Of a stretch of 61,545 nucleotides of DNA, positions 10,111 to 49,606 are shown piece after piece. The position numbers and the translations under genes are program-made. How positions within the stretch are numbered: position 1 is the first letter of the stretch; each line of letters begins with the position of its first letter. The notes below the pieces were generated by a model, which was not told the origin of the DNA, made no database searches, and was given only the letters and a program-made list of their open reading frames with translations. Source of the DNA: a virus (taxonomy: Duplodnaviria > Caudoviricetes); the IMG/VR virus record IMGVR_UViG_3300035673_000003, positions 1-61,545 of that record. The stretch is one strand, 5' to 3'.

Positions 10111-10131
10111 ATTTTGACGGGGGCATATTTC

Positions 10132-11478
10132 ATGACGCTTCGCATTGAGGAGCAGCTGCTCCGTCGCATGTGGCCGCACGGCGACAGCCACATTCCCGGG
10201 CTCATCAAGGGCATCGCTCAATCGTCGGAGGCGGTGCTGCGGAAACGCAACATCACCACGGCGCTCCAGCTTGCTCACATCATGGCGCAGCTCAGCCTCG
10301 AGTGCGGCGGCGGCACCGAAGTGGTCGAGAACCTGAACTACACCACGCCGCGCGCGATGATGACCGCATGGCCGCGTCGCTTTCCGACGGTCTCCTCGAC
10401 GGTCGCCTTCCTTCACAATCCCCGGAAGCTGGCGAACAACGTCTACAACGGGCGCATGGGCAACCGCCCGGGGACCAATGACGGCTACGATTTTCGCGGC
10501 CGCGGCGGATCCCAGACCACCGGCCGCTCTGCCTATGACAAGCTCGGCCGCGCCTCGGGCCACGACCTGATCGGCAACCCCGATCTCCTCAACGATCCGG
10601 AACTGTTCTTCGACTTCGCGGTGGCCGACTTCATCATGTGCGGCTGTCTGCCTTATTGCTCGCCGCGCCCGGGCCTGCCGCTCGGCGACATCCTCGGCGT
10701 CACTCACCATTTGAACGGCGGCACCAACGGGCTGGCCGGGCGCAAGGAGTGGTTTGCTCGCTGGTGGCCGGTGCTCAGGGGCATGGACGCCGCAGCGCGG
10801 CCGGTGGCCCTTCTGGCGCCGCCTGTGAACGACGACGACGCGGACGCCGCTCCGACGCTTGCGGACGCTCCTGGAACGGCTCCAGCTGCCGAAGAGCCGG
10901 TTCCGGAGGACGACGGCGTGCTGCGCTACGGCTGCGGCCACGACAAGCCGGACTTCAAGGTCAAGGCGCTGCAGGAGCTGCTCGCCTCCAAAGGCTACAC
11001 CACTGGCCGGATGGACGGCGACTTCTCGACCGGAACCCGGGCTTGCGTCCTCGCCGCGCAGGCCGACAACGGCCTGCCGCTCACCGGCGAGGTCGACCCC
11101 GCGACTTGGGCCGCGTTCCAGAACATGCCGGACAAGCCGGTGGCGGAAGATCGAGCGAACGCCACGGCTGGCGATCTCGCGGCCGCAGGCTCGGAGACGG
11201 TGCGCGACGGCCAGCACGTGGGCCTGATTGGCAAGGGTCTCGCCTTCCTCGGCGTCGGCAAAGCCGCGGACGCGACCGGCGCGCTCGATCACGTCAAGGG
11301 CGCCGTCGACCAGGTCAACACCGCGCGCTCCATCCTCGACAGCGCCGGCGACGTACTGACGTGGGCGGCCTCGCATTGGTGGATCGGCGCGCTCGGCGTC
11401 GGCTTCCTCGCGTGGGTGCTCGGCAATCGCATCATCACCAAGCGCGTTCAGGACCACCGCAGCGCGCGCATTCTCTAG
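10132..11478 (+). CDS. Endolysin: GH19 chitinase-like domain, peptidoglycan-binding domain and C-terminal hydrophobic helices
   Basis: AHIMAQLSLEC...ENLNY...NRPGTNDGYDFRGRG...NGGTNGL (GH19); VKALQELL...GY..G.MDG.F...T...Q...GL..TG.VD..TW (PG_binding_1). Confidence 0.88.
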   Translation: MTLRIEEQLLRRMWPHGDSHIPGLIKGIAQSSEAVLRKRNITTALQLAHIMAQLSLECGGGTEVVENLNYTTPRAMMTAWPRRFPTVSSTVAFLHNPRKLANNVYNGRMGNRPGTNDGYDFRGRGGSQTTGRSAYDKLGRASGHDLIGNPDLLNDPELFFDFAVADFIMCGCLPYCSPRPGLPLGDILGVTHHLNGGTNGLAGRKEWFARWWPVLRGMDAAARPVALLAPPVNDDDADAAPTLADAPGTAPAAEEPVPEDDGVLRYGCGHDKPDFKVKALQELLASKGYTTGRMDGDFSTGTRACVLAAQADNGLPLTGEVDPATWAAFQNMPDKPVAEDRANATAGDLAAAGSETVRDGQHVGLIGKGLAFLGVGKAADATGALDHVKGAVDQVNTARSILDSAGDVLTWAASHWWIGALGVGFLAWVLGNRIITKRVQDHRSARIL

Positions 11479-11490
11479 GGGAGACACACC

Positions 11491-11991
11491 ATGATCGCTT
11501 TAATCACCCGCGCCGCGGGCATGTTCGGCTTGAGCCTGGCCCCGCTTTGGGCCGGCGCGATCGCCGCCCTCCTGATCGGAGGCGGCTTCGGCGTCTACAG
11601 CCTCAAGCTCTACAACGCGGGGTACCGCTCCGCCGATAGCAAGTGCCAGGCGGCGGCGCTGCAGTCCGAGATCGACGCGTTGAAAGCGGATCGCGACAAC
11701 GCGAAGCGGGCGGCTGGCGACGCCGCGCTCCGTCTCGCCACCATCGAGAAGCAGTCCACAGAAAATCAGGAAAGGACATCAGCCTATGTTGCCGAACTCG
11801 AACGAGCAGCCGCCGCGCCGCCGCCGAAGGACGGCAAGCCTGCTGTTGGGAAGCCTTGCGCTCTCACTGCCGCTGATCTCCGGGGGATGCGCGCACCAGT
11901 CGCCCGCGCCCGTCCCATTCGCCCGCGACCTTCCGTCGGCCCCCGATGGCTTGCTCCAGCCGGTAGCGGTCCCGCCGTTAAAGCTAGGTGA
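11491..11991 (+). CDS. Inner-membrane spanin (Rz-like)
   Basis: N-terminal TM followed by a coiled coil; follows the endolysin and overlaps a lipoprotein ORF. Confidence 0.7.
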   Translation: MIALITRAAGMFGLSLAPLWAGAIAALLIGGGFGVYSLKLYNAGYRSADSKCQAAALQSEIDALKADRDNAKRAAGDAALRLATIEKQSTENQERTSAYVAELERAAAAPPPKDGKPAVGKPCALTAADLRGMRAPVARARPIRPRPSVGPRWLAPAGSGPAVKAR

Positions 11992-12112
11992 GGACGCCCG
12001 GATCCCGCTCGCCAAGACGCGGGATGCTCTCGAAGAAGCCAACTCGCGCTTGTCCGGCGGCGCGGGTTGGTATGACAGCGTGCGCCAGGACTACGGAGCC
12101 AAGCAACAATGA
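11786..12112 (+). CDS. Outer-membrane lipoprotein spanin (Rz1-like)
   Basis: RRRRR, a hydrophobic stretch and lipobox ISGG/C, then a Pro-rich segment; overlaps the Rz-like gene in another frame. Confidence 0.7.
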   Translation: MLPNSNEQPPRRRRRTASLLLGSLALSLPLISGGCAHQSPAPVPFARDLPSAPDGLLQPVAVPPLKLGEDARIPLAKTRDALEEANSRLSGGAGWYDSVRQDYGAKQQ

Positions 12113-13082: not shown

Positions 13083-13733
13083 ATGAGCGGCATCAAGGTG
13101 TTCTGGCTGGAGCCGACCGATCGGGAGCGGCACTGGCTGCGGCGCTTCTCAAGCAGCGAGAAGCGCAAATGCGGCGTGTCCGCATCGTACTGCAACGCCA
13201 TGTTCGAGCTCGGCGAGGCGGACATTCTCTACACCAAGGACGGCTACATCGACGGCGCGCGCAAGGGACCGCCGACGACGGATCCCCGCTGGCCGACGAA
13301 GTGCACCAGATGCGGCGTACCGTTCGCCTCCGACGATGCGTTTCAGGTATTCGGTCGACAGGTTTACGTGAGGCCGGACACCGGCTTTCGGTGCACACTG
13401 GAGGAAGCGCCGCCTGGCGCTTGTTGGGATGCGTGGTGGATCACCGAGCGGAAAAAGAACGGTCCAACCGGCTGCGGCTATCACGTCGGCCCCGATCACC
13501 GCTGCCTGATCGTCAAATGTCCGGACGGCCACGATTGGATGATTGACGGGCGCGCCAGCAACTGCACGCGACCGACCGACAACACGCACCATTGCTGGGT
13601 CCGGCACGGCCGCCCGGAGGACGGTACCCTGCACGTCGACAAACTCGGCGATACCTGTGCCGCCGGCGCCGGGTCGATCGTGACGCCGAAGTGGCATGGC
13701 TTCCTGCGCCACGGCGAACTGGTCACTTGCTGA
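13083..13733 (+). CDS. Cys/His-rich hypothetical protein (possible metal-binding)
   Basis: RBS GAGG before ATG 13083; CTRC, KCPDGHDW, HHCWVRHG and WHGFLRHG motifs. Confidence 0.7.
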   Translation: MSGIKVFWLEPTDRERHWLRRFSSSEKRKCGVSASYCNAMFELGEADILYTKDGYIDGARKGPPTTDPRWPTKCTRCGVPFASDDAFQVFGRQVYVRPDTGFRCTLEEAPPGACWDAWWITERKKNGPTGCGYHVGPDHRCLIVKCPDGHDWMIDGRASNCTRPTDNTHHCWVRHGRPEDGTLHVDKLGDTCAAGAGSIVTPKWHGFLRHGELVTC

Positions 13734-13893
13734 AAAGAGTTCTGTGCTGTGTCGCGATGTTGCGGCTGGCACTCTGGGCGATCCCCGCCCTTGTGAATTG
13801 GTTCAGGCGCGCGAGCGTCTCAAGTAACCGACGCGGATCGCCTTCCGCGTCCGGTCGCCCTTTGCCATAGGGGGCGTATCCTACGAGCAAACT

Positions 13894-13922
13894 GCCCCGC
13901 GCTTCGGCGCGGGGCTTTTTTT
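13894..13922 (+). terminator. Intrinsic terminator ending the late operon
   Basis: GCCCCGCGC-TTCG-GCGCGGGGC followed by T7; lies between convergent genes. Confidence 0.85.
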
Positions 13923-13932
13923 GTGTCCGGAT

Positions 13933-14091
13933 TTAGAGCGGCGGCGCGGGCGAAAAGAACCACAGCACCGCCGCGATGCAGGCCGCGATGCCTACGAGAA
14001 CGACGAGCGACCGCCGTGCCAACTTCGAGCCGGCGATCGCCAGCACCACCAGCATAAAGAAAATCAGGAAGGTCCAGGTCAGGCCGGTCAT
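13933..14091 (-). CDS. 52-aa two-TM membrane protein (not in the ORF track)
   Basis: MTGLTWTFLIFFMLVVLAIAGSKLARRSLVVLVGIAACIAAVLWFFSPAPPL; ATGA-coupled to the upstream gene. Confidence 0.7.
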   Translation of the reverse strand: MTGLTWTFLIFFMLVVLAIAGSKLARRSLVVLVGIAACIAAVLWFFSPAPPL

Positions 14092-14279
14092 CGTTGCTTC
14101 ACTCCAGTTGGTTCGATGAATACCACGGGTTCGAACCTCTCATAACGCCATGAGCCTCCGGACCATGAACGGCAGACCGGGCCGCCGTCCACGATGGCCC
14201 GAACTTGCCACAGGTTTCCGGCCCATTCGAACTTCGCTCCGACATCGACCCAATCAGGTAGTGTCACAGTGCCGGTCAT
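14088..14279 (-). CDS. 63-aa hypothetical protein
   Basis: MTGTVTLPDW...; ATGA-coupled at both ends. Confidence 0.65.
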   Translation of the reverse strand: MTGTVTLPDWVDVGAKFEWAGNLWQVRAIVDGGPVCRSWSGGSWRYERFEPVVFIEPTGVKQR

Positions 14280-14581
14280 TTCCAAGGCTCTCCGTTCGGT
14301 TTCTTGATGTTCACGTTGCCGTCGGCGTCGACCGTGGTTTCCGCGAAGTGCCCCGGGACGACGAGGGGGTTCGCCGGGTTGAAACCGGCATGGTGCAAGA
14401 CGGGTCGCTGGCCCTTTCCGACGGCCTCGATCTCGTCGGCACACACCCTCAATTCTTTGGCGACGTTGCCAGCATACGGCTCGCCAAGACACTCGGCGAT
14501 CTCCCGAATTTCATCGGCGATCTCGCTTAGGGGCCTGACGCCCGCGTTTTCCAAATCTCGTTTTGTCCTATTGGTTTCCAT
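14276..14581 (-). CDS. 101-aa hypothetical protein
   Basis: METNRTKRDL...; GAGG upstream; first gene downstream of the attP core. Confidence 0.55.
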   Translation of the reverse strand: METNRTKRDLENAGVRPLSEIADEIREIAECLGEPYAGNVAKELRVCADEIEAVGKGQRPVLHHAGFNPANPLVVPGHFAETTVDADGNVNIKKPNGEPWK

Positions 14582-14754
14582 CGTGTCGCGCCTCGGCGTT
14601 TTCCAAAAAATGCTAGTAGTTTCCGATACCGCGACGAATTTTAAGTCCCTTGCGTCTACCAATTCCGCCACGTCCGCTCGTTGATTTATAAGACCTTTTC
14701 GGCGTTTCCCGCCTGACGTTTTCCAAACATGCTTAACCGTTTTCCAAAACGGTT
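14545..14754. repeat. attP arm-type integrase binding repeats CGTTTTCCAAA x4
   Basis: Direct copies at 14545, 14597, 14717 and 14738, two on each side of the tRNA-identical core, next to the integrase stop. Confidence 0.8.
14638..14677 (-). other. attP core: 5' half of tRNA-Leu(UAA) (not a complete tRNA)
   Basis: The minus strand reads GCGGACGTGGCGGAATTGGTAGACGCAAGGGACTTAAAAT (acceptor 5' strand, D arm, anticodon 5' strand, CTTAAAA loop). tRNA similarity stops one base after the loop. Confidence 0.88.
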
Positions 14755-15911
14755 CACGATGCACCCCCAGCATCCTTCACCCGCTTGAAGGCGCGGATGA
14801 CGTTCTCCTCGGCTTCGACGTGCCGCGTATAGTGCGCGCCCATGCGCTCGGATTTGTCGCCGAGCAGGCCGGCGATCTCCGAATTGGTGGCACCTCCGGT
14901 CCGCTTCCACCATGCGGCGTAAGAGACGCGCAGGCCGTGCAGCGTGGTCCCGGCGCCGATCAGCCCCTTGCGCTCAAGGTCGCGGAGATAGTGGCTGACG
15001 CGGGTTTGCATTTCCTTTTCGCTCGGCCACGGCGTCCCATCGTCGCGCATCGCAATGAGAGTGCCGGATCGGTTCAAGCCCGCGAGGAAGGGTTGGAGCT
15101 CGGGCATCGCCGGCAGGTAGAGGCCGCGCTTGTTTTTGCGGGTCACGAAGCGGAAGCACATGCCGGTCAACTCGTCCGGTTGGTAATGCTTCCAACTGGC
15201 GACGACGATGCTCTGCCCGCGCAGGCCGCCGAACCGCGCCAGCATCAACGGGATCTTGATCTCCATCGGCGCGTGAGCGAAGGCGGTCGGAAGCTCCGCC
15301 TTGAACCACTCGCGGTTGGCGTTCGGATCGGCTTCGTGAGCCTTGTCCATGCCGCGACAGGGATTGACCATCATCCCTGTTTTGTTTCCGCGCTTCACCG
15401 CCTGGGTGAACATAGACGACAGCGCGCTAATCATCTGATCGGCGAAGCGCGGCCACTTCTGGTTCGCGCACTTGTCGCGGAGGTCGTAAAGGTCGGGCTG
15501 TGTGATGTCGACCAATGCGATGTCGAACTCGTCGCGAAGCCAATCGAAGGCGTCGAGGTAGTCCGTCCTCGTCGCGGCCGCCAGCTTGGTCCGCCACTTC
15601 GGATAACCGTCCGGATTTTCACCGAAGCGGTCCTCTGCCTTTCGCTCCTCAGCCGTGCGGTCAATGTCGCCGTTGGTGAACCAGTGCACGAAGCCGCCGA
15701 GCGTCTCGACAGAGAACGAGCTCGCAGGGCGGGCGCGCGTCCGTGGGCGGTTGTAGCCGGCGATAAATTCGGGGGAAGCGAGCGCGCGCTCAAGGTCGGC
15801 GCGGCTGCCTTCGAGGCCCTTTATCAGGGCCGCGCCGCTCGAACGGAGATAGACGTACCACTTGCCCCGCGCTCGGGCGATCTTCAAACCTTGCAGCTTA
15901 ACCCTTACCAC
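14754..15911 (-). CDS. int: Tyrosine integrase
   Basis: GLRGQS (R), TLHGLR (HxxR), LLGD, AHYTR (Y). Start placed at GTG 15911 after GGAG (ORF track starts at 15980). Confidence 0.93.
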   Translation of the reverse strand: MVRVKLQGLKIARARGKWYVYLRSSGAALIKGLEGSRADLERALASPEFIAGYNRPRTRARPASSFSVETLGGFVHWFTNGDIDRTAEERKAEDRFGENPDGYPKWRTKLAAATRTDYLDAFDWLRDEFDIALVDITQPDLYDLRDKCANQKWPRFADQMISALSSMFTQAVKRGNKTGMMVNPCRGMDKAHEADPNANREWFKAELPTAFAHAPMEIKIPLMLARFGGLRGQSIVVASWKHYQPDELTGMCFRFVTRKNKRGLYLPAMPELQPFLAGLNRSGTLIAMRDDGTPWPSEKEMQTRVSHYLRDLERKGLIGAGTTLHGLRVSYAAWWKRTGGATNSEIAGLLGDKSERMGAHYTRHVEAEENVIRAFKRVKDAGGAS

Positions 15912-16149
15912 CGACACGCTCCCCGATACGCCTACGCTGCGTAGTGGGGGAGGCTGCGTCGTTTTTATCGAGCGTGTCAAGCCATCCGTCGAGGCGGGCG
16001 CGACGGTAGCGGTGCCCGCGCGTGGATTGCGTGAATTCGATGGGCTTGACAGGACACACCTCCTTGAAGGTATCGACGCTCAGACCGCAGTAAGCCGCGG
16101 CCTGGTCGAGACGGAGCGCTTCCGGCCAGTATGGGAGGCGGTCCGACAT
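15898..16149 (-). CDS. xis: Excisionase-like HTH protein
   Basis: PEALRLDQAAAYCGLSVDTF...YRRARLDGWLD; directly upstream of int. Confidence 0.8.
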   Translation of the reverse strand: MSDRLPYWPEALRLDQAAAYCGLSVDTFKEVCPVKPIEFTQSTRGHRYRRARLDGWLDTLDKNDAASPTTQRRRIGERVGGKG

Positions 16150-16347
16150 TCAGGCGTTCGCAACCTCGGGGCACGGATGCGCGGCGATCGCCTCGTCCAG
16201 TGTGATAGCCCGCTCGCTCTCGGCGAGCGGGATCACGGCGATAGTCGTCTGCTGGTTGACTTCCCACTCCATCGACGCGCGCGGATCGAGCAAGTCGAGC
16301 GAGGGCAGGGGACCGCGCAGCCCTCGACGCCAGACTAAATAATTCAT
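16150..16347 (-). CDS. Hypothetical protein (65 aa)
   Basis: Tightly packed in the leftward operon. Confidence 0.6.
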   Translation of the reverse strand: MNYLVWRRGLRGPLPSLDLLDPRASMEWEVNQQTTIAVIPLAESERAITLDEAIAAHPCPEVANA

Positions 16348-16679
16348 AGGGCTACAGGTTCTATGTGGTCGCGCGCGTAGCGCTCAATCTGCTCCGCCGC
16401 GATGCGAGCGCATCGCTCGCCAAACTCGACCGGATCAAACGAGCCGTTATGCAATGCCGCCGCACTGCACAATCCAAACGCAGCCTTCGCTACGTGAGCA
16501 TAGGAGAGCGTCGGCACAATGTCCGCGACCGATAGGCCAGCGTCGACGCCATAAGTCTCCACCACGCGAGCGTCGATCTCGACGGCGACGGCGCTCCACG
16601 TTTCGATCATATCTTTGTGAGTTGGATTGAGCAGCACCGCGTCGTGTGCGCCCTCGGGAATATTGATCTTTGCTTGCAT
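16344..16679 (-). CDS. Hypothetical protein (111 aa)
   Basis: ATGA-coupled to the next gene. Confidence 0.65.
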   Translation of the reverse strand: MQAKINIPEGAHDAVLLNPTHKDMIETWSAVAVEIDARVVETYGVDAGLSVADIVPTLSYAHVAKAAFGLCSAAALHNGSFDPVEFGERCARIAAEQIERYARDHIEPVAL

Positions 16680-21698: not shown

Positions 21699-22328
21699 TC
21701 AGCGCGGCGCGATGGCCACGATCTTGGACGCCCAGACGATCCGTGTGCGGTCGACTACTTGGGCAGACCCGGTTTCGTAGTGTTCGATCTCCGCGCCTTT
21801 GACCCTGCGGAGAACAATGCGGTTACCTTCGAGGCCGAGAACAGCAAGACCTTGAAGGCCGCCCGGCTTGAACGGCTCGCGGTGATCCTCGAAAAAGGCA
21901 TACATGCCTTCTGCCAAGCTTCTGCCCTTAATTTCGAGCGCCACCGTGCGGTCGGTTGCAAACCCTTGACGCTCCAGGCGATCGGCATCGAAGCCATATA
22001 GCGAGCCTTCCCCCGTAGGCACGCCAAACCAGCCGATGACTGGCGTGGTGTGCTGTTCAACCCTTGTTGGAGACCCGCTGGCCTTGGCTCTGGCGATAAC
22101 GGGCGAAGCACCTTCTCCGGTGTATAGCCAGCTCGCGTCACACTGCAGGTGTGGAGACCAGCCTTTCGCCTCCTCCCACTTGAAGTCTCGGCCGCCCGGC
22201 TGCTGCGCCCGCTCCTTCGAACTGTAGGTTGATACCGCAAGTCCAAGCTTCTTCGCCATATCGGCTTGGTTAAGCCCCAAACGCTCGCGAGCGATCCGTA
22301 ACCGGTCGCCTCGTGTGTTCTTCTCCAT
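21699..22328 (-). CDS. cI: CI-like repressor (XRE HTH plus degenerate S24-like domain)
   Basis: RLRIARERLGLNQADMAKKLGLAVSTYSSKE HTH; divergent from a cro-like gene. Confidence 0.85.
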   Translation of the reverse strand: MEKNTRGDRLRIARERLGLNQADMAKKLGLAVSTYSSKERAQQPGGRDFKWEEAKGWSPHLQCDASWLYTGEGASPVIARAKASGSPTRVEQHTTPVIGWFGVPTGEGSLYGFDADRLERQGFATDRTVALEIKGRSLAEGMYAFFEDHREPFKPGGLQGLAVLGLEGNRIVLRRVKGAEIEHYETGSAQVVDRTRIVWASKIVAIAPR

Positions 22329-22399
22329 CAAATCACCCCTGCAGAACGCAAATTGGAATTCTGTCAACACAGAATTGGTCGGTTATACCATAAAAATCG

Positions 22400-24292: not shown

Positions 24293-24677
24293 ACCCGACT
24301 TCGGACTAGGCTCGTATTTCCATATCAAGTGGACGCCGGAGCGGGTCGCCTACGTGCGCCATTGCGCCACTGAATTGAAGATGAGCGCGGCGGCGATCGC
24401 CAAGGACATTGGCCTCGACGCGCGCGGCGGGCCGCGCATCGCGAACGCCTGCAAAGTGCACGGCATCCGGTTGCAGGGCAAAGGCGGAAGGCCGCCGCGC
24501 CGCACGCCGCCGATCCTGCTGGAGATCCCACTCGATTATCTGCCGACCCTCGAAAGGCTCGGCATCAAGCACAAACGTTCCCGCGTGGAGATCACAAGCC
24601 TCCTGCTTGAAGCGATGTTCTCGCAGGGCGAAACGTTCCTCGAAAACCTATTGGATTTGGACGGCGCCGGTGACTGA
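24285..24677 (+). CDS. GcrA-like N-terminal HTH protein
   Basis: WTPERVAYVR...MSAAAIAKDIG matches the GcrA N-terminal W-T-x-E-R-V...S-A-x-x-I-A pattern. Confidence 0.55.
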   Translation: MDRPDFGLGSYFHIKWTPERVAYVRHCATELKMSAAAIAKDIGLDARGGPRIANACKVHGIRLQGKGGRPPRRTPPILLEIPLDYLPTLERLGIKHKRSRVEITSLLLEAMFSQGETFLENLLDLDGAGD

Positions 24678-26355
24678 CGTTGTGGAAGATCAATATCTGC
24701 CGGGCGACATCGAAGGCGAGGGCGGGGAGAAGCTGTCGGACCAACTCGCTGAACATCGCTTGATCGGCATTCTCTTACGCAACCCTGAGATCGCCGCAGA
24801 AATCCGAAGCCTAGTCTCCCCGCAAGAATTCTTTGATCGCGCTCTGGGGCGAGCATTTGACGGTATCGTGGCGGCAGAAGGGCTGCTCAGGAACGAGGAC
24901 GTGATCGACTGGCTCGGCGGTTCTGCCGTCACGTTCGGCGATCGCACGGCGAAGCAATTCGTCGGCCACCTGATTGGCGAGAGCATGGACCTCACGCCGG
25001 CCGACGCCTCGGTGTACGCCAACTCCATCTTCGAATGTGCCGAGCGGCGCTTCACACAGGCGGGCGACACTAACCTGGTCGGTGCCGACGCGTGGCAGTC
25101 CAAGATGGGGCTCTCGACGTGGGGCGATCGCAACTCCGCAGTGACCGACGAATACGACGAGCTGGTGGAGGGCATCATTCCCGAGCGCGAGCTCGTCATA
25201 ATGATCGGCCCGACACAGGCGGGCAAATCGTTTCTCGGCCGTCATCTGTGCTACTGCCTCGCCCGCGGCGTCGACTTCATGGGCCACCGCATCCTCAAGC
25301 CGGTCCCGGTTGTCTGGTGCGCCTATGAAGGCGGGCGCGGCATCAAGGCGCGCGATCAGGCCTATGAGAAGGCGACCGGCTTCGTCGGCGACATGCTGCT
25401 CGCCAACCTAGCCGAGCCGATCGACCTCTGGTCAAAAGAGCTCAACGTTGAGGAGCTGATTAAAGAGATCGAGGGCATCAAGCGCACGGAATTCGGCGGC
25501 CGCGATCCGGCCGCCATTTTCATTGACACGCACAACGCCGCGACACCTGGCGCCTCGGAGATCGACAGCGCTGACGTCTCCAAGATCAGGGACCGCTACA
25601 AGCGGATCGCCTCCGTGTTCAAGTGCACGGTCATCATCATCGGCCACACCAACTCGCTCGGCAAAATGCGCGGCAACGAGCAGCTGCCGAACAACGCGGA
25701 AACGGTAATCATCGTCAACAAAAAGACGCGCACCGAAAACCGCCAGATCATTCAGGTCAAGGACAACGACGCGCGCGACGTTCGCCACGTCGAGCTGTGG
25801 AAGCAGCGCGAGGGCCAGACCGGCCCGCTGTTCGACTTCGTTCTGCCCGCCTACGAAACCGGCCTCAAAAACAAATTCGGCAAGTATCGGACATCGTGCG
25901 TGGTCACGCCGCCGAACTTCGAAAGCGAGCCGGAGAAGGTCGAGGAGAAAAAGACCGTCACCACCAAGGCTGGCTTCAAGCTCACCGACATCGAGGATCA
26001 GTTCTTCGGCGTTCTGTGGAAGCAGCTTATGGAGGCCGGCGCCGACGCGCCGCCCGAGCTCAATCTCCCCAAGGGGACACGCGTGGTGCATCGCTCCGTG
26101 GTCGGCAAGGCCTATCGCGAAAGCTCAATTCCGGAGGACGGCGCGCAGCCGGTGAATTCCAACACCGTCAAGGCGCGGTGGGATCGCTCGTCGCGGCGGC
26201 TGCGAAAGTTCGACGTGATCGGTTTTCAGGAGCCTTACTTCTGGTGGACGGGCAAGCCGATCTTGGGGCGGCCCGCGACCCAGCCTCAACGTTCTATGTC
26301 GTTCGACCGCGACGAAGCACCAACCACCGCCGAATTCGACGGCTTTCCGGAGTGA
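24670..26355 (+). CDS. Replicative helicase: DnaB-like N-terminus, RecA/RepA-type (AAA_25) ATPase and C-terminal DNA-binding-like region
   Basis: AEHRLIGILL, GPTQAGKS (Walker A), IFIDT (Walker B), IIIGHT, KQREG; GTG overlaps the upstream stop. Confidence 0.85.
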   Translation: MTDVVEDQYLPGDIEGEGGEKLSDQLAEHRLIGILLRNPEIAAEIRSLVSPQEFFDRALGRAFDGIVAAEGLLRNEDVIDWLGGSAVTFGDRTAKQFVGHLIGESMDLTPADASVYANSIFECAERRFTQAGDTNLVGADAWQSKMGLSTWGDRNSAVTDEYDELVEGIIPERELVIMIGPTQAGKSFLGRHLCYCLARGVDFMGHRILKPVPVVWCAYEGGRGIKARDQAYEKATGFVGDMLLANLAEPIDLWSKELNVEELIKEIEGIKRTEFGGRDPAAIFIDTHNAATPGASEIDSADVSKIRDRYKRIASVFKCTVIIIGHTNSLGKMRGNEQLPNNAETVIIVNKKTRTENRQIIQVKDNDARDVRHVELWKQREGQTGPLFDFVLPAYETGLKNKFGKYRTSCVVTPPNFESEPEKVEEKKTVTTKAGFKLTDIEDQFFGVLWKQLMEAGADAPPELNLPKGTRVVHRSVVGKAYRESSIPEDGAQPVNSNTVKARWDRSSRRLRKFDVIGFQEPYFWWTGKPILGRPATQPQRSMSFDRDEAPTTAEFDGFPE

Positions 26356-38916: not shown

Positions 38917-39318
38917 TTAGAGGTTGAGTAATTCAAGCAACGCTTGCGGCGCTTCCTGCAGGGATTGAACGCCACGCCACGGCACGAACGGCACCGGACG
39001 CGAATTCCGCAACACGAGCGCCCAATGCCCGCGCTGATACCACTTGCTCTTGTGATCGCGGACACAGTCCACGATCTCGGTGATGCCGATGATGCCGCCC
39101 TCCGGAAGCAGGGAAGGCGGTCGAACGCCATAGTGGCGCTCGATCTCGGCGGCGGTTATGTCATCGCCGCGCTTTGACGCGTGAACGATTAACGTTCCGC
39201 GGTACTGTGTCCGCCACGTTCTGTTCTCGACGTCCTTTAGTCCGTTGACGATCAGAGACGCCCACGGTTGCTTTATGGCGAGGACTTTGGCTTTCGGCAG
39301 CATCTGGTTTCCTGTCAT
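38917..39318 (-). CDS. ASCH-domain protein
   Basis: LAIKQPWASLIVNGLKDVENRTWRTQYRGTLIVHAS...GGIIG...DC. Confidence 0.9.
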   Translation of the reverse strand: MTGNQMLPKAKVLAIKQPWASLIVNGLKDVENRTWRTQYRGTLIVHASKRGDDITAAEIERHYGVRPPSLLPEGGIIGITEIVDCVRDHKSKWYQRGHWALVLRNSRPVPFVPWRGVQSLQEAPQALLELLNL

Positions 39319-40168
39319 TGAGAAGGTCTGTTGTTGTCGCCACGCGCCGCAGGTCGTGTTCCATCTGCAGAACGTGTTTACGCACCAGCACTAACCGATC
39401 CGCCATGAGCAGAAGGCGATCAGGAGAGACGCGCTGCGCTGCGACGCATTCGCCTTCCTTAAAGCCCGACTGGATCATGTCGGCCACGAGGTTGATCTTC
39501 CTTTCCAGCCGCGAGAGCGCGGCCAGGTCCTGTTCGGACGCGCGCGGCATTTCGCCGAAGGCGTCGAGTTGGTTCTCCGCATCGCGCAAGGCGATGCAAG
39601 CGTGTTTCACCTGTTCGGACGTTGTGAATTTGCCCGCGCTTATCGCGCGGACCATTGCGATCTGCCGAGCCGGTGGAAGGTGCGCCACGCCTCCCGCCAT
39701 TGTCGACGCGAGCTGTCCCGAAGCCACGAGAGCTTGCACTTCGGGGATCAGTCTGAGCAGCAAGACGCGCTGTTGAACGAGCGCCGTGCTTTTCAGTCCT
39801 AACTCGGTGACGATGCGCTGCGCGTCAAAACCTTGATCGAGTAGGAGTTGAAAGGCGTTCGCCTCCTCGATAGGGTTCATATCCTGACGCTGCAGGTTCT
39901 CCACGATGGCGCGCAACGCCATTTCGTTCTCGTCGATCTCGACAACCTCGGCGCGGATTGTCTCCTCGCCGAGCAGCTGGTGAGCGCGGAAGCGACACTC
40001 GCCGGCTACGATCATGTAGCGGTCCGCTGCGATCCTCCGCAGTGCGATCGGTTGGATAAGCCCGCGCACCTTGATGGACGCGGCCAGCCGTTCAATGTGT
40101 TCCTGCGGGAACGCCTTGCGCGGCTGGCCGGGGTTGGCGATGATTTGTTCGAGTGGGATCATCGTCAT
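39161..40168 (-). CDS. ParB/Spo0J-family protein
   Basis: NPGQPRKAF...LAASIKVRGLIQPI...IVAGECRFRA...IVENLQRQDMNPIEEA plus HTH. Confidence 0.9.
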   Translation of the reverse strand: MTMIPLEQIIANPGQPRKAFPQEHIERLAASIKVRGLIQPIALRRIAADRYMIVAGECRFRAHQLLGEETIRAEVVEIDENEMALRAIVENLQRQDMNPIEEANAFQLLLDQGFDAQRIVTELGLKSTALVQQRVLLLRLIPEVQALVASGQLASTMAGGVAHLPPARQIAMVRAISAGKFTTSEQVKHACIALRDAENQLDAFGEMPRASEQDLAALSRLERKINLVADMIQSGFKEGECVAAQRVSPDRLLLMADRLVLVRKHVLQMEHDLRRVATTTDLLNDRKPDAAESQSPRHKATVGVSDRQRTKGRREQNVADTVPRNVNRSRVKARR

Positions 40169-40413
40169 CGCGAGAGCTTCCTTGCGAGCGCGCGCGCCAC
40201 GGCGTCCTGGCTCCACAGTCCGTATTGCCCCTTGAGGGTCGTTCCGAAGGACTGCAGCTCCTCGACGATGACCGGCGCGGCCTTGTCCGCCACGCTGCCA
40301 TAGACGCGATACACTTTGAGGAAGCGGCCTCCGGATTGAAAAACAGCGCCGGATGGGATCTCGGCGCTGCGCTCAATCATCGGCGGTGGGAAGAGGTCGA
40401 ACTGCCTATTCAC
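40165..40413 (-). CDS. Hypothetical protein (82 aa)
   Basis: GGAGG RBS; coupled to parB. Confidence 0.65.
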   Translation of the reverse strand: MNRQFDLFPPPMIERSAEIPSGAVFQSGGRFLKVYRVYGSVADKAAPVIVEELQSFGTTLKGQYGLWSQDAVARALARKLSR

Positions 40414-47133: not shown

Positions 47134-47640
47134 GTGGCGGAGGAGAAGCTCGGCTCTGGCGAGTGCAACAGCGACACCGGCTCCAAATTGCTCATGTGCA
47201 CGCCGCAGTGGTTCAATCAGCTGGTGCGCGACGGCTGGATTAAAAAGCTCGGCAAGAACCGCTACCGCGTCGTCGACGTGGTGCAGGGCTATATCAAACA
47301 CCTGCAGGACGAAAACCGCCGCGCTCAGAAAAGCGCCGCTGCATCGCGCGTCCAAGACGCGCGGGCCGCCCAGATCGAAATGCTGACCGCGCGTGATATG
47401 GGCAAGCTGGTCGATGTGGATGACGTGCTGACGTGGCAGAGCGAGATACTCGGCGCGCTGCGCTCCGAGTTGACCGGCGTTCCCGCCGCGACGACGCGCG
47501 ACCTCGCCGTCCGCGCGGAGATAGAAAAGCAAATCAATGCCGCCGTTGACCGATCCCGCACAGCGTTTGAGGAAGCGTGGTCGCTTCTACAGAGCGGCAA
47601 GCCAGTCGCTGTGGACGCCGAAGAAGCAGACGCCGGATGA
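47134..47640 (+). CDS. terS: Terminase small subunit (Nu1-like)
   Basis: wHTH-like NQLVRDGWI...YRVVDVVQGYIKHL followed by a coiled coil; precedes and overlaps terL. Confidence 0.8.
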   Translation: MAEEKLGSGECNSDTGSKLLMCTPQWFNQLVRDGWIKKLGKNRYRVVDVVQGYIKHLQDENRRAQKSAAASRVQDARAAQIEMLTARDMGKLVDVDDVLTWQSEILGALRSELTGVPAATTRDLAVRAEIEKQINAAVDRSRTAFEEAWSLLQSGKPVAVDAEEADAG

Positions 47641-49606
47641 GTGGGGTGCCGAGAACCGGGTCTATGGTCCTGGCACCGGCTGGCCGGGGCAGCGCAATCC
47701 GAACCTGACGCCATACGCCACGCCGTTCGCCCGCGCCTTCACCGATCCGAAGTATCGCCGCGTCGTTCTGGTCACGGCGGCACAGAGCGCCAAGACGGAG
47801 ACGCTGCTCGACGTGATCGGCGAGCGCCTCGACAACCGGCCGGCGCCGATCCTCTACGTCGGACCCAACAAGCAATTCATCACCGATCAGTTCGAGCCGC
47901 GGGTTCGGGAATTATTCGTTCAGGCGAAGTCGCTCGCGTCCAAGATGATCGGCGGCATTGACGGCAAGCAACAGAAGCAGGCGCTCAAGCGGGTGAACGG
48001 CACTCGCCTCCGCCTCGCGCACGCCGGATCGTCCACCGCCTTGAAGTCGGATCCCGCGTCTATGGCGCTGGTCGACGAATACGACGAGATGCTGGCGAAC
48101 GTGAAAGGGCAGGGCGATCCTCTCGGCCTGGTCGAAGCTCGCGGCGATACCTATGCGGACTTCGTGGTCGGCGTCGTTTCAACCCCTTCGGTCGGCATGA
48201 TTGAGATCGAGCGCGACGAGGACGCAAACCTCGAATTCTGGAAGGCGGTCGATCCGGACGCCATCGAGGACGTGAAGTCGCCAATCTGGCGGCTGTGGCA
48301 GGAAGGCACACGGCATCACTGGTGCTGGCCGTGCGTCCACTGCGGCGACTACTTCGTGCCGCGCTTCGCGCAGCTCGAATGGCCGAAGGATGCCTCGCCG
48401 CTGCAGGCTCGGCGCAACGCCTTCGTCCGCTGTCCGCATTGCGGCGGCGTGCTGGAGGACCGCCACAAATCCGAGATGAACGCGCGCGGCCGTCACGTTG
48501 CGCCCGGGCAGAAGGTCGATCGGGAAGGCGTCGTGGTTGGCGATCCGCCCGACACCTCGACGCTGTCGTTCTGGGTTTCCGGCCTTGCGTCGCCGTTCGT
48601 GACCTTCGGCCAGCGCGCGGAGACGTTCTTGACCGCGTTGCTCTCCCGCGAGAGCGGCAAAATCCAGACGGCTACCAACTCGCAGTTTGGCGAGCTTTAC
48701 ATCGACGGCGGCGGCGAAGTCCCCGCCTGGGAGGCGATCTTCGCGGCGCGGCTCGGCTACAAGCCGGGCACCGTTCCGGAAGGCGTCCGCTACATCACGG
48801 CGGGGATCGACGTTCAAAAGGACCGGCTGATCTACGTGGTGCGCGGCTGGGGGCATCGCGCAACGTCGTGGCTCCTCAAACACGGCGAGCTGCTCGGCAA
48901 CACCGGCGAGCCGGAGGTCTGGAGCGACCTTGACGAATTCCTGGCGGCGTCGATGGACGGCCACACCATCAAGCTCGTCTTTCTGGACAGCGGCTTTCGC
49001 CCCGGCAAAAAGGAAGGCGTTCCTGTCAATCGCATCTATGAATTCTGCCGACGCCACCGGCGCTTCGTGTTCCCCACCAAGGGATCCTCGCACTCGATGC
49101 TGCGCCCGCTGGTCAAGTCGCAGATCGAAGTGACGCAGCAGGGCAAGGTTTCGAAATACGGCCTCGAGCTCGTGCGCCTCGACACCGACCACTGGAAGTC
49201 CTTCGTCCACGAGAAGCTGGTCTGGCCGGCCGATCAGCCAGGCGCGTGGTTCCTCCACAACGATGTCAACGAGAGCTACTGCCGCCAGCTCGTCTCCGAA
49301 GTCCGCGTCACCACCGAGAACAACAAGCACCAATGGATAGTGCGTTCTCGCGAAAACCATTTTCTCGACGCGGAGGCTCTCGCGGCCGCCGCGGGCTACA
49401 TGCTCAACGTTCAGCATTTGCGCGGCGGGGGCGGGCGGTCCCCTCCTCGCGTCACTGCCGCGCAAACAGTGGAGCCGGAGGCGATCCAGACGCCTTCGGC
49501 TCCACGCCCAATTCCGCAACAGCCCCCGCAGCCCGCGCCGATCGCGGCGGCGACAGCGGCCAAGAAAAACCGCTTCGCCAGCCTCGCGGCGCGGCTCAAC
49601 AGGTAG
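47537..49606 (+). CDS. terL: Terminase large subunit (lambda GpA family)
   Basis: AAQSAKTE, LVDEYDE, VSTP, CVHCG/CPHCG, ITAGIDVQKD, FLDSG and NHFLDAE; exact start uncertain. Confidence 0.95.
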   Translation: MPPLTDPAQRLRKRGRFYRAASQSLWTPKKQTPDEWGAENRVYGPGTGWPGQRNPNLTPYATPFARAFTDPKYRRVVLVTAAQSAKTETLLDVIGERLDNRPAPILYVGPNKQFITDQFEPRVRELFVQAKSLASKMIGGIDGKQQKQALKRVNGTRLRLAHAGSSTALKSDPASMALVDEYDEMLANVKGQGDPLGLVEARGDTYADFVVGVVSTPSVGMIEIERDEDANLEFWKAVDPDAIEDVKSPIWRLWQEGTRHHWCWPCVHCGDYFVPRFAQLEWPKDASPLQARRNAFVRCPHCGGVLEDRHKSEMNARGRHVAPGQKVDREGVVVGDPPDTSTLSFWVSGLASPFVTFGQRAETFLTALLSRESGKIQTATNSQFGELYIDGGGEVPAWEAIFAARLGYKPGTVPEGVRYITAGIDVQKDRLIYVVRGWGHRATSWLLKHGELLGNTGEPEVWSDLDEFLAASMDGHTIKLVFLDSGFRPGKKEGVPVNRIYEFCRRHRRFVFPTKGSSHSMLRPLVKSQIEVTQQGKVSKYGLELVRLDTDHWKSFVHEKLVWPADQPGAWFLHNDVNESYCRQLVSEVRVTTENNKHQWIVRSRENHFLDAEALAAAAGYMLNVQHLRGGGGRSPPRVTAAQTVEPEAIQTPSAPRPIPQQPPQPAPIAAATAAKKNRFASLAARLNR

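Follow-up and report, generated by a model that had tools for sequence, protein, structure and literature searches.

A phage attachment site with the 5′ half of tRNA-Leu(UAA), and the insertion polarity of its integrase clade in Bradyrhizobium and relatives

INTRODUCTION

A 2002 paper by Zhao and Williams reportedly deals, to judge from its title, with integrative elements at the 5′ side of tRNA genes, and Williams is said to have described in the same year tRNA-targeting integrases with a sublocation at the anticodon loop, for which the block shared by element and gene usually extends from the loop as far as the gene's 3′ end. In phage lambda, the pL transcript reads through the integrase gene (int) and across the phage attachment site (attP), and in Streptomyces the tRNA-Leu(UAA) bldA gates genes that contain TTA codons. 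Table 1 of the Islander study lists 3760 islands with a 3′ fragment of the target tRNA gene (tDNA) and 159 with a 5′ fragment, of 3919 (PMC4383910); the 5′ polarity is rare but already catalogued. Here we analyse a locus of this rare kind in the viral record IMGVR_UViG_3300035673_000003, the whole of which (61,545 bp) is referred to below as the window: directly behind its int gene the window carries the first 40 nt of a tRNA-Leu(UAA) gene (positions 14638–14677), flanked by repeats of the kind that an integrase would bind.

Insertions of related kinds are known from other bacteria. A preprint mentions a Klebsiella integrase clade that inserts upstream of arg2 (10.1101/2020.11.02.365908), and in Sinorhizobium meliloti, phiLM21-like prophages lie in tRNA-Leu(UAA) at a frequency of 0.16 of 25, the gene being reconstructed on integration (PMC12429752). 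The text passages of the latter paper do not state which half the prophage supplies; it was the only literature found on Bradyrhizobium prophage integrases at tRNA-Leu, and supplementary lists of published studies might already include the clade described here. The text passages of PMC11476347 and PMC9897764 hold nothing on polarity. A preliminary description of the present locus had started from the premise that tRNA-targeting elements usually supply the 3′ part of the gene, which agrees with the Islander counts; the opposite polarity, which it offered as a departure, has its place in the same catalogue and is not new.

RESULTS

The attachment site and its integrase

On the minus strand, the region at 13933–16149 reads in the order excisionase-like gene (xis), int, two arm repeats, TATAAAT, six bases, the 40-nt tRNA half, two further arm repeats and three open reading frames (ORFs), and it is the integration module of a temperate soil phage, with xis, a lambda-type tyrosine integrase with arm sites and an attP that spans about 200 bp. 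The core of this attP, or identity block, at 14638–14677 (minus strand) corresponds to positions 1–40 of tRNA-Leu(UAA) and contains the acceptor strand, the D arm, the 5′ anticodon stem and the loop with the anticodon TAA, plus one base. It matches Bradyrhizobium tRNA-Leu(UAA) genes at 40/40 positions in two genomes (G001 and G005) and at 39/40 in three more. The identity extends up to the 5′ end of the target gene and stops one base past the anticodon loop, at position 40, beyond which the window diverges from the gene: the 3′ half is absent, ARAGORN finds no tRNA gene in the whole window, and Rfam returns no tRNA in 13800–15000 even at an expectation value (E) of ≤10. Since the identity ends at the anticodon stem-loop, the crossover is expected within the 7-nt loop that the symmetric stem arms enclose, or next to it.

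The core is flanked by four exact 11-nt copies of TTTGGAAAACG, all in one orientation on the minus strand and within 204 bp; two of them (14738–14748 and 14717–14727) stand after the int stop codon, on the tRNA-upstream side of the core, and two (14597–14607 and 14545–14555) on the far side. Elsewhere in the 61.5 kb there is one further copy at one mismatch, and five matches were reached in 0/100 shuffles. These arm-type repeats flank the core on both sides, differ from it in sequence and adjoin int, as in a heterobivalent attP of the lambda type. Next to the core on its tRNA-upstream side is a promoter-like block (14678–14716, minus strand), putatively a promoter supplied by the phage, which aligns with a block conserved in the clade and includes TATAAAT at 14684–14690, 6 nt before tRNA position 1. 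The preliminary description had recognized the half-tRNA, the four repeats and the TATAAAT, and all three are confirmed, with the gap now set at 6 nt.

Just before the outermost arm repeat, a 13-nt motif (14556–14568, minus strand) is conserved and recurs in three related loci (L037, L083 and L071). It overlaps the first codons of ORF101, the first of the three ORFs, and in relatives of opposite orientation it adjoins int; because it falls in different reading frames among the relatives, it is conserved as DNA and not as coding sequence, and part of the 5′ end of ORF101 is therefore constrained as DNA. An accessory intasome protein may bind the motif.

The int gene (minus strand) occupies 14754–15980 in its longest ORF, which starts with TTG at 15980; alignment with relatives makes GTG at 15911 the probable start. 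Its product matches the integrase family phrog_1 at E 6.7e-21. A profile of 15 clade members matches lambda Int structures (5j0n, E 1.6e-4) across both the core-binding and the catalytic domain, and the catalytic Arg, His-x-x-Arg and Tyr (in LRGQ, HGLR and AHYT) align with those of lambda and are invariant in the 15 members; the single int sequence finds no match among solved structures. The only int relative among deposited phage records is a distant one, from a Mesorhizobium phage (23% identity). The gene for an excisionase-like DNA-binding protein of 83 amino acids (15898–16149, minus strand) immediately precedes int and overlaps with it. The family matches of this protein are weak (phrog_66, 'excisionase and transcriptional regulator', E 0.0011; TIGR01764, 16.5 bits, below the cut-off of 28.8), and in 14 of 66 related loci a relative of it is encoded immediately ahead of int.

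Junctions and polarity in relatives

Relatives of int were sought in one genome per species, which gave 25 bacterial loci at 48–79% identity, from Bradyrhizobium, Afipia, Rhizobium, Shinella and uncultured Alphaproteobacteria. A tRNA-Leu(UAA) gene is present in 17 of the 25. In 14 loci the complete gene lies on the strand of int and starts 85–118 nt past the point where the int match ends, with two arm repeats and the conserved block in the space between, and in two it lies further downstream (1357 and 2245 nt). A 5′ fragment adjoins int in seven loci: in two of these it alone occupies the place of the tRNA, forming a junction with another element; in four it lies on the opposite strand, 144–173 nt after int; and in one it stands beside a partial int. 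Neither gene nor fragment was found in two of the 25 loci (L013 and L017), one of which ends 132 nt after int, and the 5′ half is thus held, as gene or fragment, in 23/25.

Displaced 5′ fragments mark the other ends of elements of 9–16 kb. A whole-genome pattern search of G002 found copies of the 5′ half 16.3 kb apart in the same orientation, the distal copy standing behind native host upstream sequence; the arm repeats after this copy are of the variant that also adjoins the int of that element. Locus L016 holds a whole element of 10.6 kb, with a 5′ fragment 10.6 kb upstream of the gene, and L011 a 9-kb element with int in the opposite orientation, in which fragment and gene are in the expected configuration. 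The arm repeats in the int–tRNA spacers vary between elements (GGAAAAC, GCAAAAC, GTCAAAC, GCATAAC, GGAAACA) and agree within an element, and those next to the displaced fragments match the int-side arm of the same element; such co-variation is the behaviour expected of arm-type Int sites. At tandem-element junctions (L033, L034 and L036), one element's arm, the core and another element's arm follow each other. In all junctions the tRNA similarity ends at positions 39–44. Recombination in this clade thus takes place at the anticodon stem-loop, with the 5′ part of the gene contributed by the element in every case. These junctions bear out the geometry deduced in the preliminary description, in which the rebuilt tRNA stands behind phage DNA and int, and the native promoter faces the displaced fragment and the phage genes.

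Int relatives were also present on 16 viral contigs. Five of these end within about 20 nt of int and one within 15 nt of it, leaving no view beyond int; one (L083) has the same layout as the window, and nine (L071–L077, L079 and L081) carry the 5′ half on the strand opposite int. Read along the tRNA, both layouts have arm repeats and the promoter-like block before the half-gene, and arm repeats and the conserved motif after it. Because attP is the same in both and only int has moved, the 5′ polarity belongs to attP and to the clade, not to the placement of int.

Two further observations concern the arrangement of prophages. Genome loci L004, L011, L015 and L020 likewise carry the tRNA-Leu 5′ half opposite to int, and in prophages of this kind int lies beside the displaced fragment and points at the native promoter. 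In the complete or near-complete Bradyrhizobium genomes G001 and G003, expected junction partners lie 2.0–2.4 Mb apart (G001:C1:3154260 and 5551575; G003:C4:3736546, 5503939 and 5747884); those of G001 are inverted and roughly symmetric on the chromosome, and the distant pairs look like large rearrangements between related elements.

Integration of the phage in the window

The structural inference is supported through these relatives, and we put at about 0.8 the probability that the attP core represents the host tRNA-Leu(UAA) gene from nt 1 to nt 40, that the phage integrates there and that its prophage lies upstream of the rebuilt tRNA, as follows from its carrying the 5′ part of the gene. 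The host is probably Bradyrhizobium or a near relative. Strand exchange would occur in the anticodon stem-loop, where the identity block has its right-hand end. The working tRNA would then consist of a phage 5′ half and a host 3′ half, standing behind int, two arm sites and the phage promoter-like block, and the native promoter would be left driving a 40-nt tRNA fragment, its transcript running on into ORF101, ORF63 and ORF52.

Several results weigh against parts of this reading. The integrase scores 11.5 bits with Pfam PF00589 (Phage_integrase) against a cut-off of 27.1 (E 0.26, positions 23–169 of 172); we read this sub-threshold score as that of a divergent family member and not of a non-member. 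A search with the core, as proposed in the preliminary description, found junctions in the relatives, and no attL or attR of the window phage itself: its int-side arm pattern has 0 exact matches in metagenome contigs, and its other arm pattern 0 in viral and metagenome contigs. In the single DNA run that contains the phage, contigs break inside the core, where they overlap at 14643–14672, with a depth of 25.7 on one side and 25.5 on the other; the core itself, which is common to many other organisms, has a depth of about 390–460, and because the contigs break inside this shared sequence, attP and attL/attR are indistinguishable in that run. No RNA runs that contain the stretch are listed. As to the promoter-like block, a generic sigma-70 scan of 13700–16400 found 0 sites; the block has the best -10 (TATAAA) among the clade blocks, but a poor -35, and its own TTGACA/TATAAT hexamer score was equalled by 51% of 200 shuffles, not beyond chance.

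The half-tRNA might, on these grounds, be a dead relic, for example of imprecise excision, in a phage that integrates elsewhere or not at all. Such an explanation would accord with the missing junction of the window phage and with a record that is one metagenome assembly, yet the fragment ends where all clade junctions end, four perfect arm repeats surround it in the standard layout of the clade, and an intact xis–int adjoins it; we consider a relic barely credible.

Occupancy of tRNA-Leu(UAA) and transcription of the rebuilt gene

Occupancy was surveyed in 61 Bradyrhizobium genomes, 60 of which gave a match; the unpublished genome G021 is left out of all counts. The 110–115 nt before each full-length gene were classified by eye in 53 genomes. 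Upstream sequence of the element type, with arm repeats and the conserved block, was found in 11 of the 53, about a fifth, and native upstream sequence in 42, where a conserved TTCCA(C/G), 16 nt and C(T)TAAGT precede the gene at a distance of about 20 nt. The occupied genes are all of the 87-nt tRNA type (11/38). Where 1.5 kb of flank was available, an int relative (E ≤ 1e-5) lay directly upstream in four of ten occupied loci; the other six may have the other layout or be decayed. Five lysogen genomes (G001, G023, G040, G054 and G064) contain no full-length match of at least 85% identity besides the element-flanked gene, the remaining full-length matches, at 78–79%, being taken as other leucine tRNA genes. 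The codon UUA can be read only by the anticodon of tRNA-Leu(UAA), and because the sole full-length gene for this tRNA is element-flanked in these genomes, element DNA must provide its transcription.

A probable source of that transcription is the conserved block, which in the clade has the form TTG(C/A)nG, 16–17 nt, (C)TATGn or TGAnnn, and 8–11 nt to tRNA position 1. Its position and spacing are kept across relatives with 50–70% int identity, including those with the opposite int layout, and the spacing fits a promoter with a very short leader; in the window, the TATAAAT block would accordingly serve as the promoter of the rebuilt tRNA. Hexamer scores fail to separate phage-type or native upstream regions from shuffles, and since native tRNA promoters also score no better than shuffles, the promoter scan is uninformative, not negative. 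Alternatively, the rebuilt tRNA may be made by read-through of the xis–int (early-left) transcript or from a promoter further upstream, the conserved block being an intasome site for IHF, Xis or Int. No terminator lies between int and the core, and a conserved AATCAA in the block resembles part of the IHF consensus; the poor -35 of the window and its chance-level hexamer score also fit this alternative. However, lysogens normally express little Int, whereas the five lysogen genomes have no full-length tRNA-Leu(UAA) match other than the element-flanked gene, and relatives with int at the far end of the prophage keep the block before the half-tRNA, with TTGACG, 16 nt and a -10-like hexamer. Read-through is a live but less likely source of the tRNA, and we favour a promoter within the block.

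The same survey yielded several observations on the target gene. Several 5′ fragments lie upstream of one tRNA-Leu(UAA) in G064, G018 and G023, with three within 47 kb in G064 (G064:C1:8146764-8193896), which suggests tandem element arrays. The genus sample gave 14 rows of 5′ fragments, in nine genomes, versus three rows of 3′ fragments; a 4.8-kb interval from a 3′-fragment row in G063 looks like an element of the usual polarity in the same gene. A second form of tRNA-Leu(UAA), of 89 nt and with a different acceptor stem (L095–L109), has native upstream sequence and is occupied in 0/15 Bradyrhizobium genomes. The 87-nt Bradyrhizobium gene (L041–L067 and others) natively has A5:C68 in its acceptor stem, occupied or not; the Afipia and Rhizobium genes (L025 and L012) have T there and pair perfectly. 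The possibility that the phage 5′ half creates the A5:C68 mismatch was rejected, as the 5′ and 3′ strands are no different in unoccupied Bradyrhizobium genes, and the sequence of the rebuilt tRNA is that of the native one.

Genes behind the half-tRNA

Three minus-strand ORFs follow attP: ORF101 (14276–14581), ORF63 (14088–14279) and ORF52 (13933–14091). They overlap by ATGA twice and are, to judge from these overlaps, translationally coupled. ORF101 is an orphan with a gene-like GC content by codon position (0.63/0.42/0.73); a word search of 5.8 billion proteins found only ORF101 itself, there was no match in Pfam, PHROG or NCBIfam, and Atlas gave nothing usable. ORF63, a small conserved protein, likewise found only itself in the word search; a HMMER search gave 23 representatives at E ≤ 1e-3 including the query, mostly of 62–121 amino acids, which share the motifs LPxW, VR..VDG and RW.Y with conserved Trp and Arg, and ORF63 defines a small uncharacterised family of about 60–120 amino acids. 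This family matches no named family, and its PHROG matches are all of unknown function, apart from a weak MarR match of one member; the Atlas model of ORF63 predicts a small beta-rich fold (predicted local distance difference test score, pLDDT, 0.78). A role for ORF63 as a KilR-type FtsZ inhibitor was suggested by an Atlas feature score of 0.88 and was rejected, 0/20 members matching PF27398 at E ≤ 0.01. ORF52 encodes a small hydrophobic protein (GC at the third codon position 0.88) with two predicted membrane spans and gave only sub-threshold matches to membrane proteins.

In the interval between the core and ORF101 there is no hairpin and no terminator, and RNA structure prediction gives nothing (z-score 0.55). 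A GC-rich hairpin at 13894–13915 (plus strand) lies between the convergent lysis operon (plus strand) and the three ORFs, with a T-run on the plus strand only; with no more than three T after its stem on the minus strand, the hairpin is at best a weak terminator for the transcript of these ORFs.

The preliminary description had proposed that integration would switch on these genes as lysogeny functions, for example superinfection exclusion. Two results tell against this. Even before integration, the three ORFs are found downstream of xis–int, on its strand, and of the phage tRNA-type block with its half-tRNA, with no terminator-like hairpin between; since they stand behind xis–int before integration and behind the native promoter after it, integration would exchange their upstream contexts and would not be an off-to-on switch. 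Furthermore, none of the three has a tblastn match in the 66 related loci, flanks of displaced fragments included, so that a conserved lysogeny cargo is not supported, and no function, superinfection exclusion included, is assignable to any of the ORFs.

The three ORFs may therefore be ordinary early-operon or moron genes on phage promoters, which come under the host tRNA promoter only as a by-product of integration and without a selected role for this fusion, an explanation that we rate just short of an even chance. They lie on the same strand as xis–int and the long leftward early block and directly after them, and at this position they are conserved in none of the 66 related loci. Relatives of ORF63 occur elsewhere, in seven viral loci (L110–L116), within runs of small same-strand genes and with no tRNA gene within 3 kb, and the sequence behind the displaced fragment varies from element to element, with genes that are not always co-directional. 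On the other hand, the geometry would send native-promoter transcripts into the ORFs unless they were stopped, nothing terminator-like was seen, and the first gene after the fragment is co-directional in L016, L035, L083 and L002. At the other extreme, the attP of this clade could be a device for transcriptional exchange, which gives the only UUA-decoding tRNA a substitute promoter, with a -35 abutting the arm sites such that Int occupancy could tune supply, and hands the native growth-rate-controlled promoter to the cargo as a host-tuned slot for lysogeny genes; we consider this very doubtful. The more modest expectation that the native promoter of a lysogen would read into the three ORFs follows from the proposed geometry alone.

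TTA codons

Phage control of TTA decoding had also been proposed, with reference to in-frame TTA codons at 24775, 47912 and 11500. All three codons are present and in frame, but they are not special: a crude set of 83 ORFs (17,514 codons) contains 20 TTA, of which four lie in antisense-shadow-like or doubtful ORFs, leaving about 16 in 14 ORFs. The genes were correctly labelled for the codons at 24775 (primase/helicase-like) and 47912 (large terminase, terL); the codon at 11500 lies in an unassigned ORF beside the Rz-like spanin gene, not in a spanin gene. The codons are spread over the CI-like repressor, primase/helicase, ParB-like, terL and lysis-region genes, early and late alike, and among the 14 plausible ORFs they are not confined to a regulated subset as in a bldA-like system. 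This distribution, together with a rebuilt tRNA of native sequence, does not support phage control of TTA decoding.

Genome context

The window, with a GC content of 62.7%, is rated 99% complete and 'linear'. The att region is bordered on one side by the end of a rightward lysis block and on the other by a long leftward block whose last genes are xis and int. PHROG matches identify an endolysin (10114–11478), an Rz-like spanin (11786–12112), a CI-like repressor (21699–22370), a primase/helicase-like protein (24409–26355), a ParB-like protein (39161–40216) and terL (47537–49606). When 13900–16200 was compared with deposited phages by DNA similarity, the sole match was a 41-nt tRNA stretch, in two Synechococcus phages. 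No family reaches its gathering score in an Rfam search of the whole window; within the 200 nt that separate the lysis block from ORF52, the plus strand at 13850–13930 has a sub-threshold match to the alphaproteobacterial small RNA family suhB/mmgR (34.2 bits; gathering score, 41), with two hairpins, the second of which is the terminator.

DISCUSSION

In this report, we describe a clean and complete example of the rare insertion at the front half of a tRNA gene, together with clade-wide evidence that includes both ends of elements, tandem arrays and two int orientations. The structural part of the proposal, in which a phage brings the 5′ half of tRNA-Leu(UAA) and comes to lie upstream of the gene that it rebuilds, is supported through relatives, and the regulatory account that had been attached to it is not supported. 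No new kind of mechanism is opened by these results, and the proposed regulatory consequences remain speculation. They do reveal that one Bradyrhizobium tRNA gene is a busy landing site, with element DNA upstream of an apparently single tRNA-Leu(UAA) in about one-fifth of the sampled species representatives. In addition, they point to cultured lysogens in which promoter exchange would be measurable.

Comparison with described systems shows which features are shared and which are particular to this clade. The target is the same isoacceptor as bldA, and its codon is likewise rare in a high-GC genome, but this is an analogy only, and in the window TTA is not confined to one gene class. The phiLM21-like prophages of S. 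meliloti are likewise rhizobial and use the same tRNA gene; in the text of that study, their integrases are compared with Azospirillum phage Cd (PMC12429752), which is not among the matches of the window integrase at E ≤ 1e-10. As in lambda, xis–int adjoins attP, direct arm repeats lie on both sides of the core, and the clade profile aligns over both Int domains; a leftward early operon would here, too, read through int and across attP. Unlike in lambda, the target is a tRNA gene, and the similarity to lambda Int is remote (E about 1e-4 by profile and none with a single sequence). The locus shares with the anticodon-loop sublocation an identity block that ends at the anticodon stem-loop, whereas the block in the window runs from the loop to the 5′ end of the gene and not to its 3′ end. 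The closest likeness is to the 5′-fragment class of Islander: in both, the element carries the 5′ part of its target, lies upstream of the rebuilt gene and displaces the 5′ fragment, and the integrated state of that class, with gene, int and an upstream 5′ fragment in the same orientation, is seen in the relatives G002, L016 and L011. What distinguishes the present case is a complete phage genome of 61.5 kb with an intact attP, and an integrase clade of Hyphomicrobiales that is specific for tRNA-Leu(UAA). This clade is thus a new, well-documented case of a known but rare polarity.

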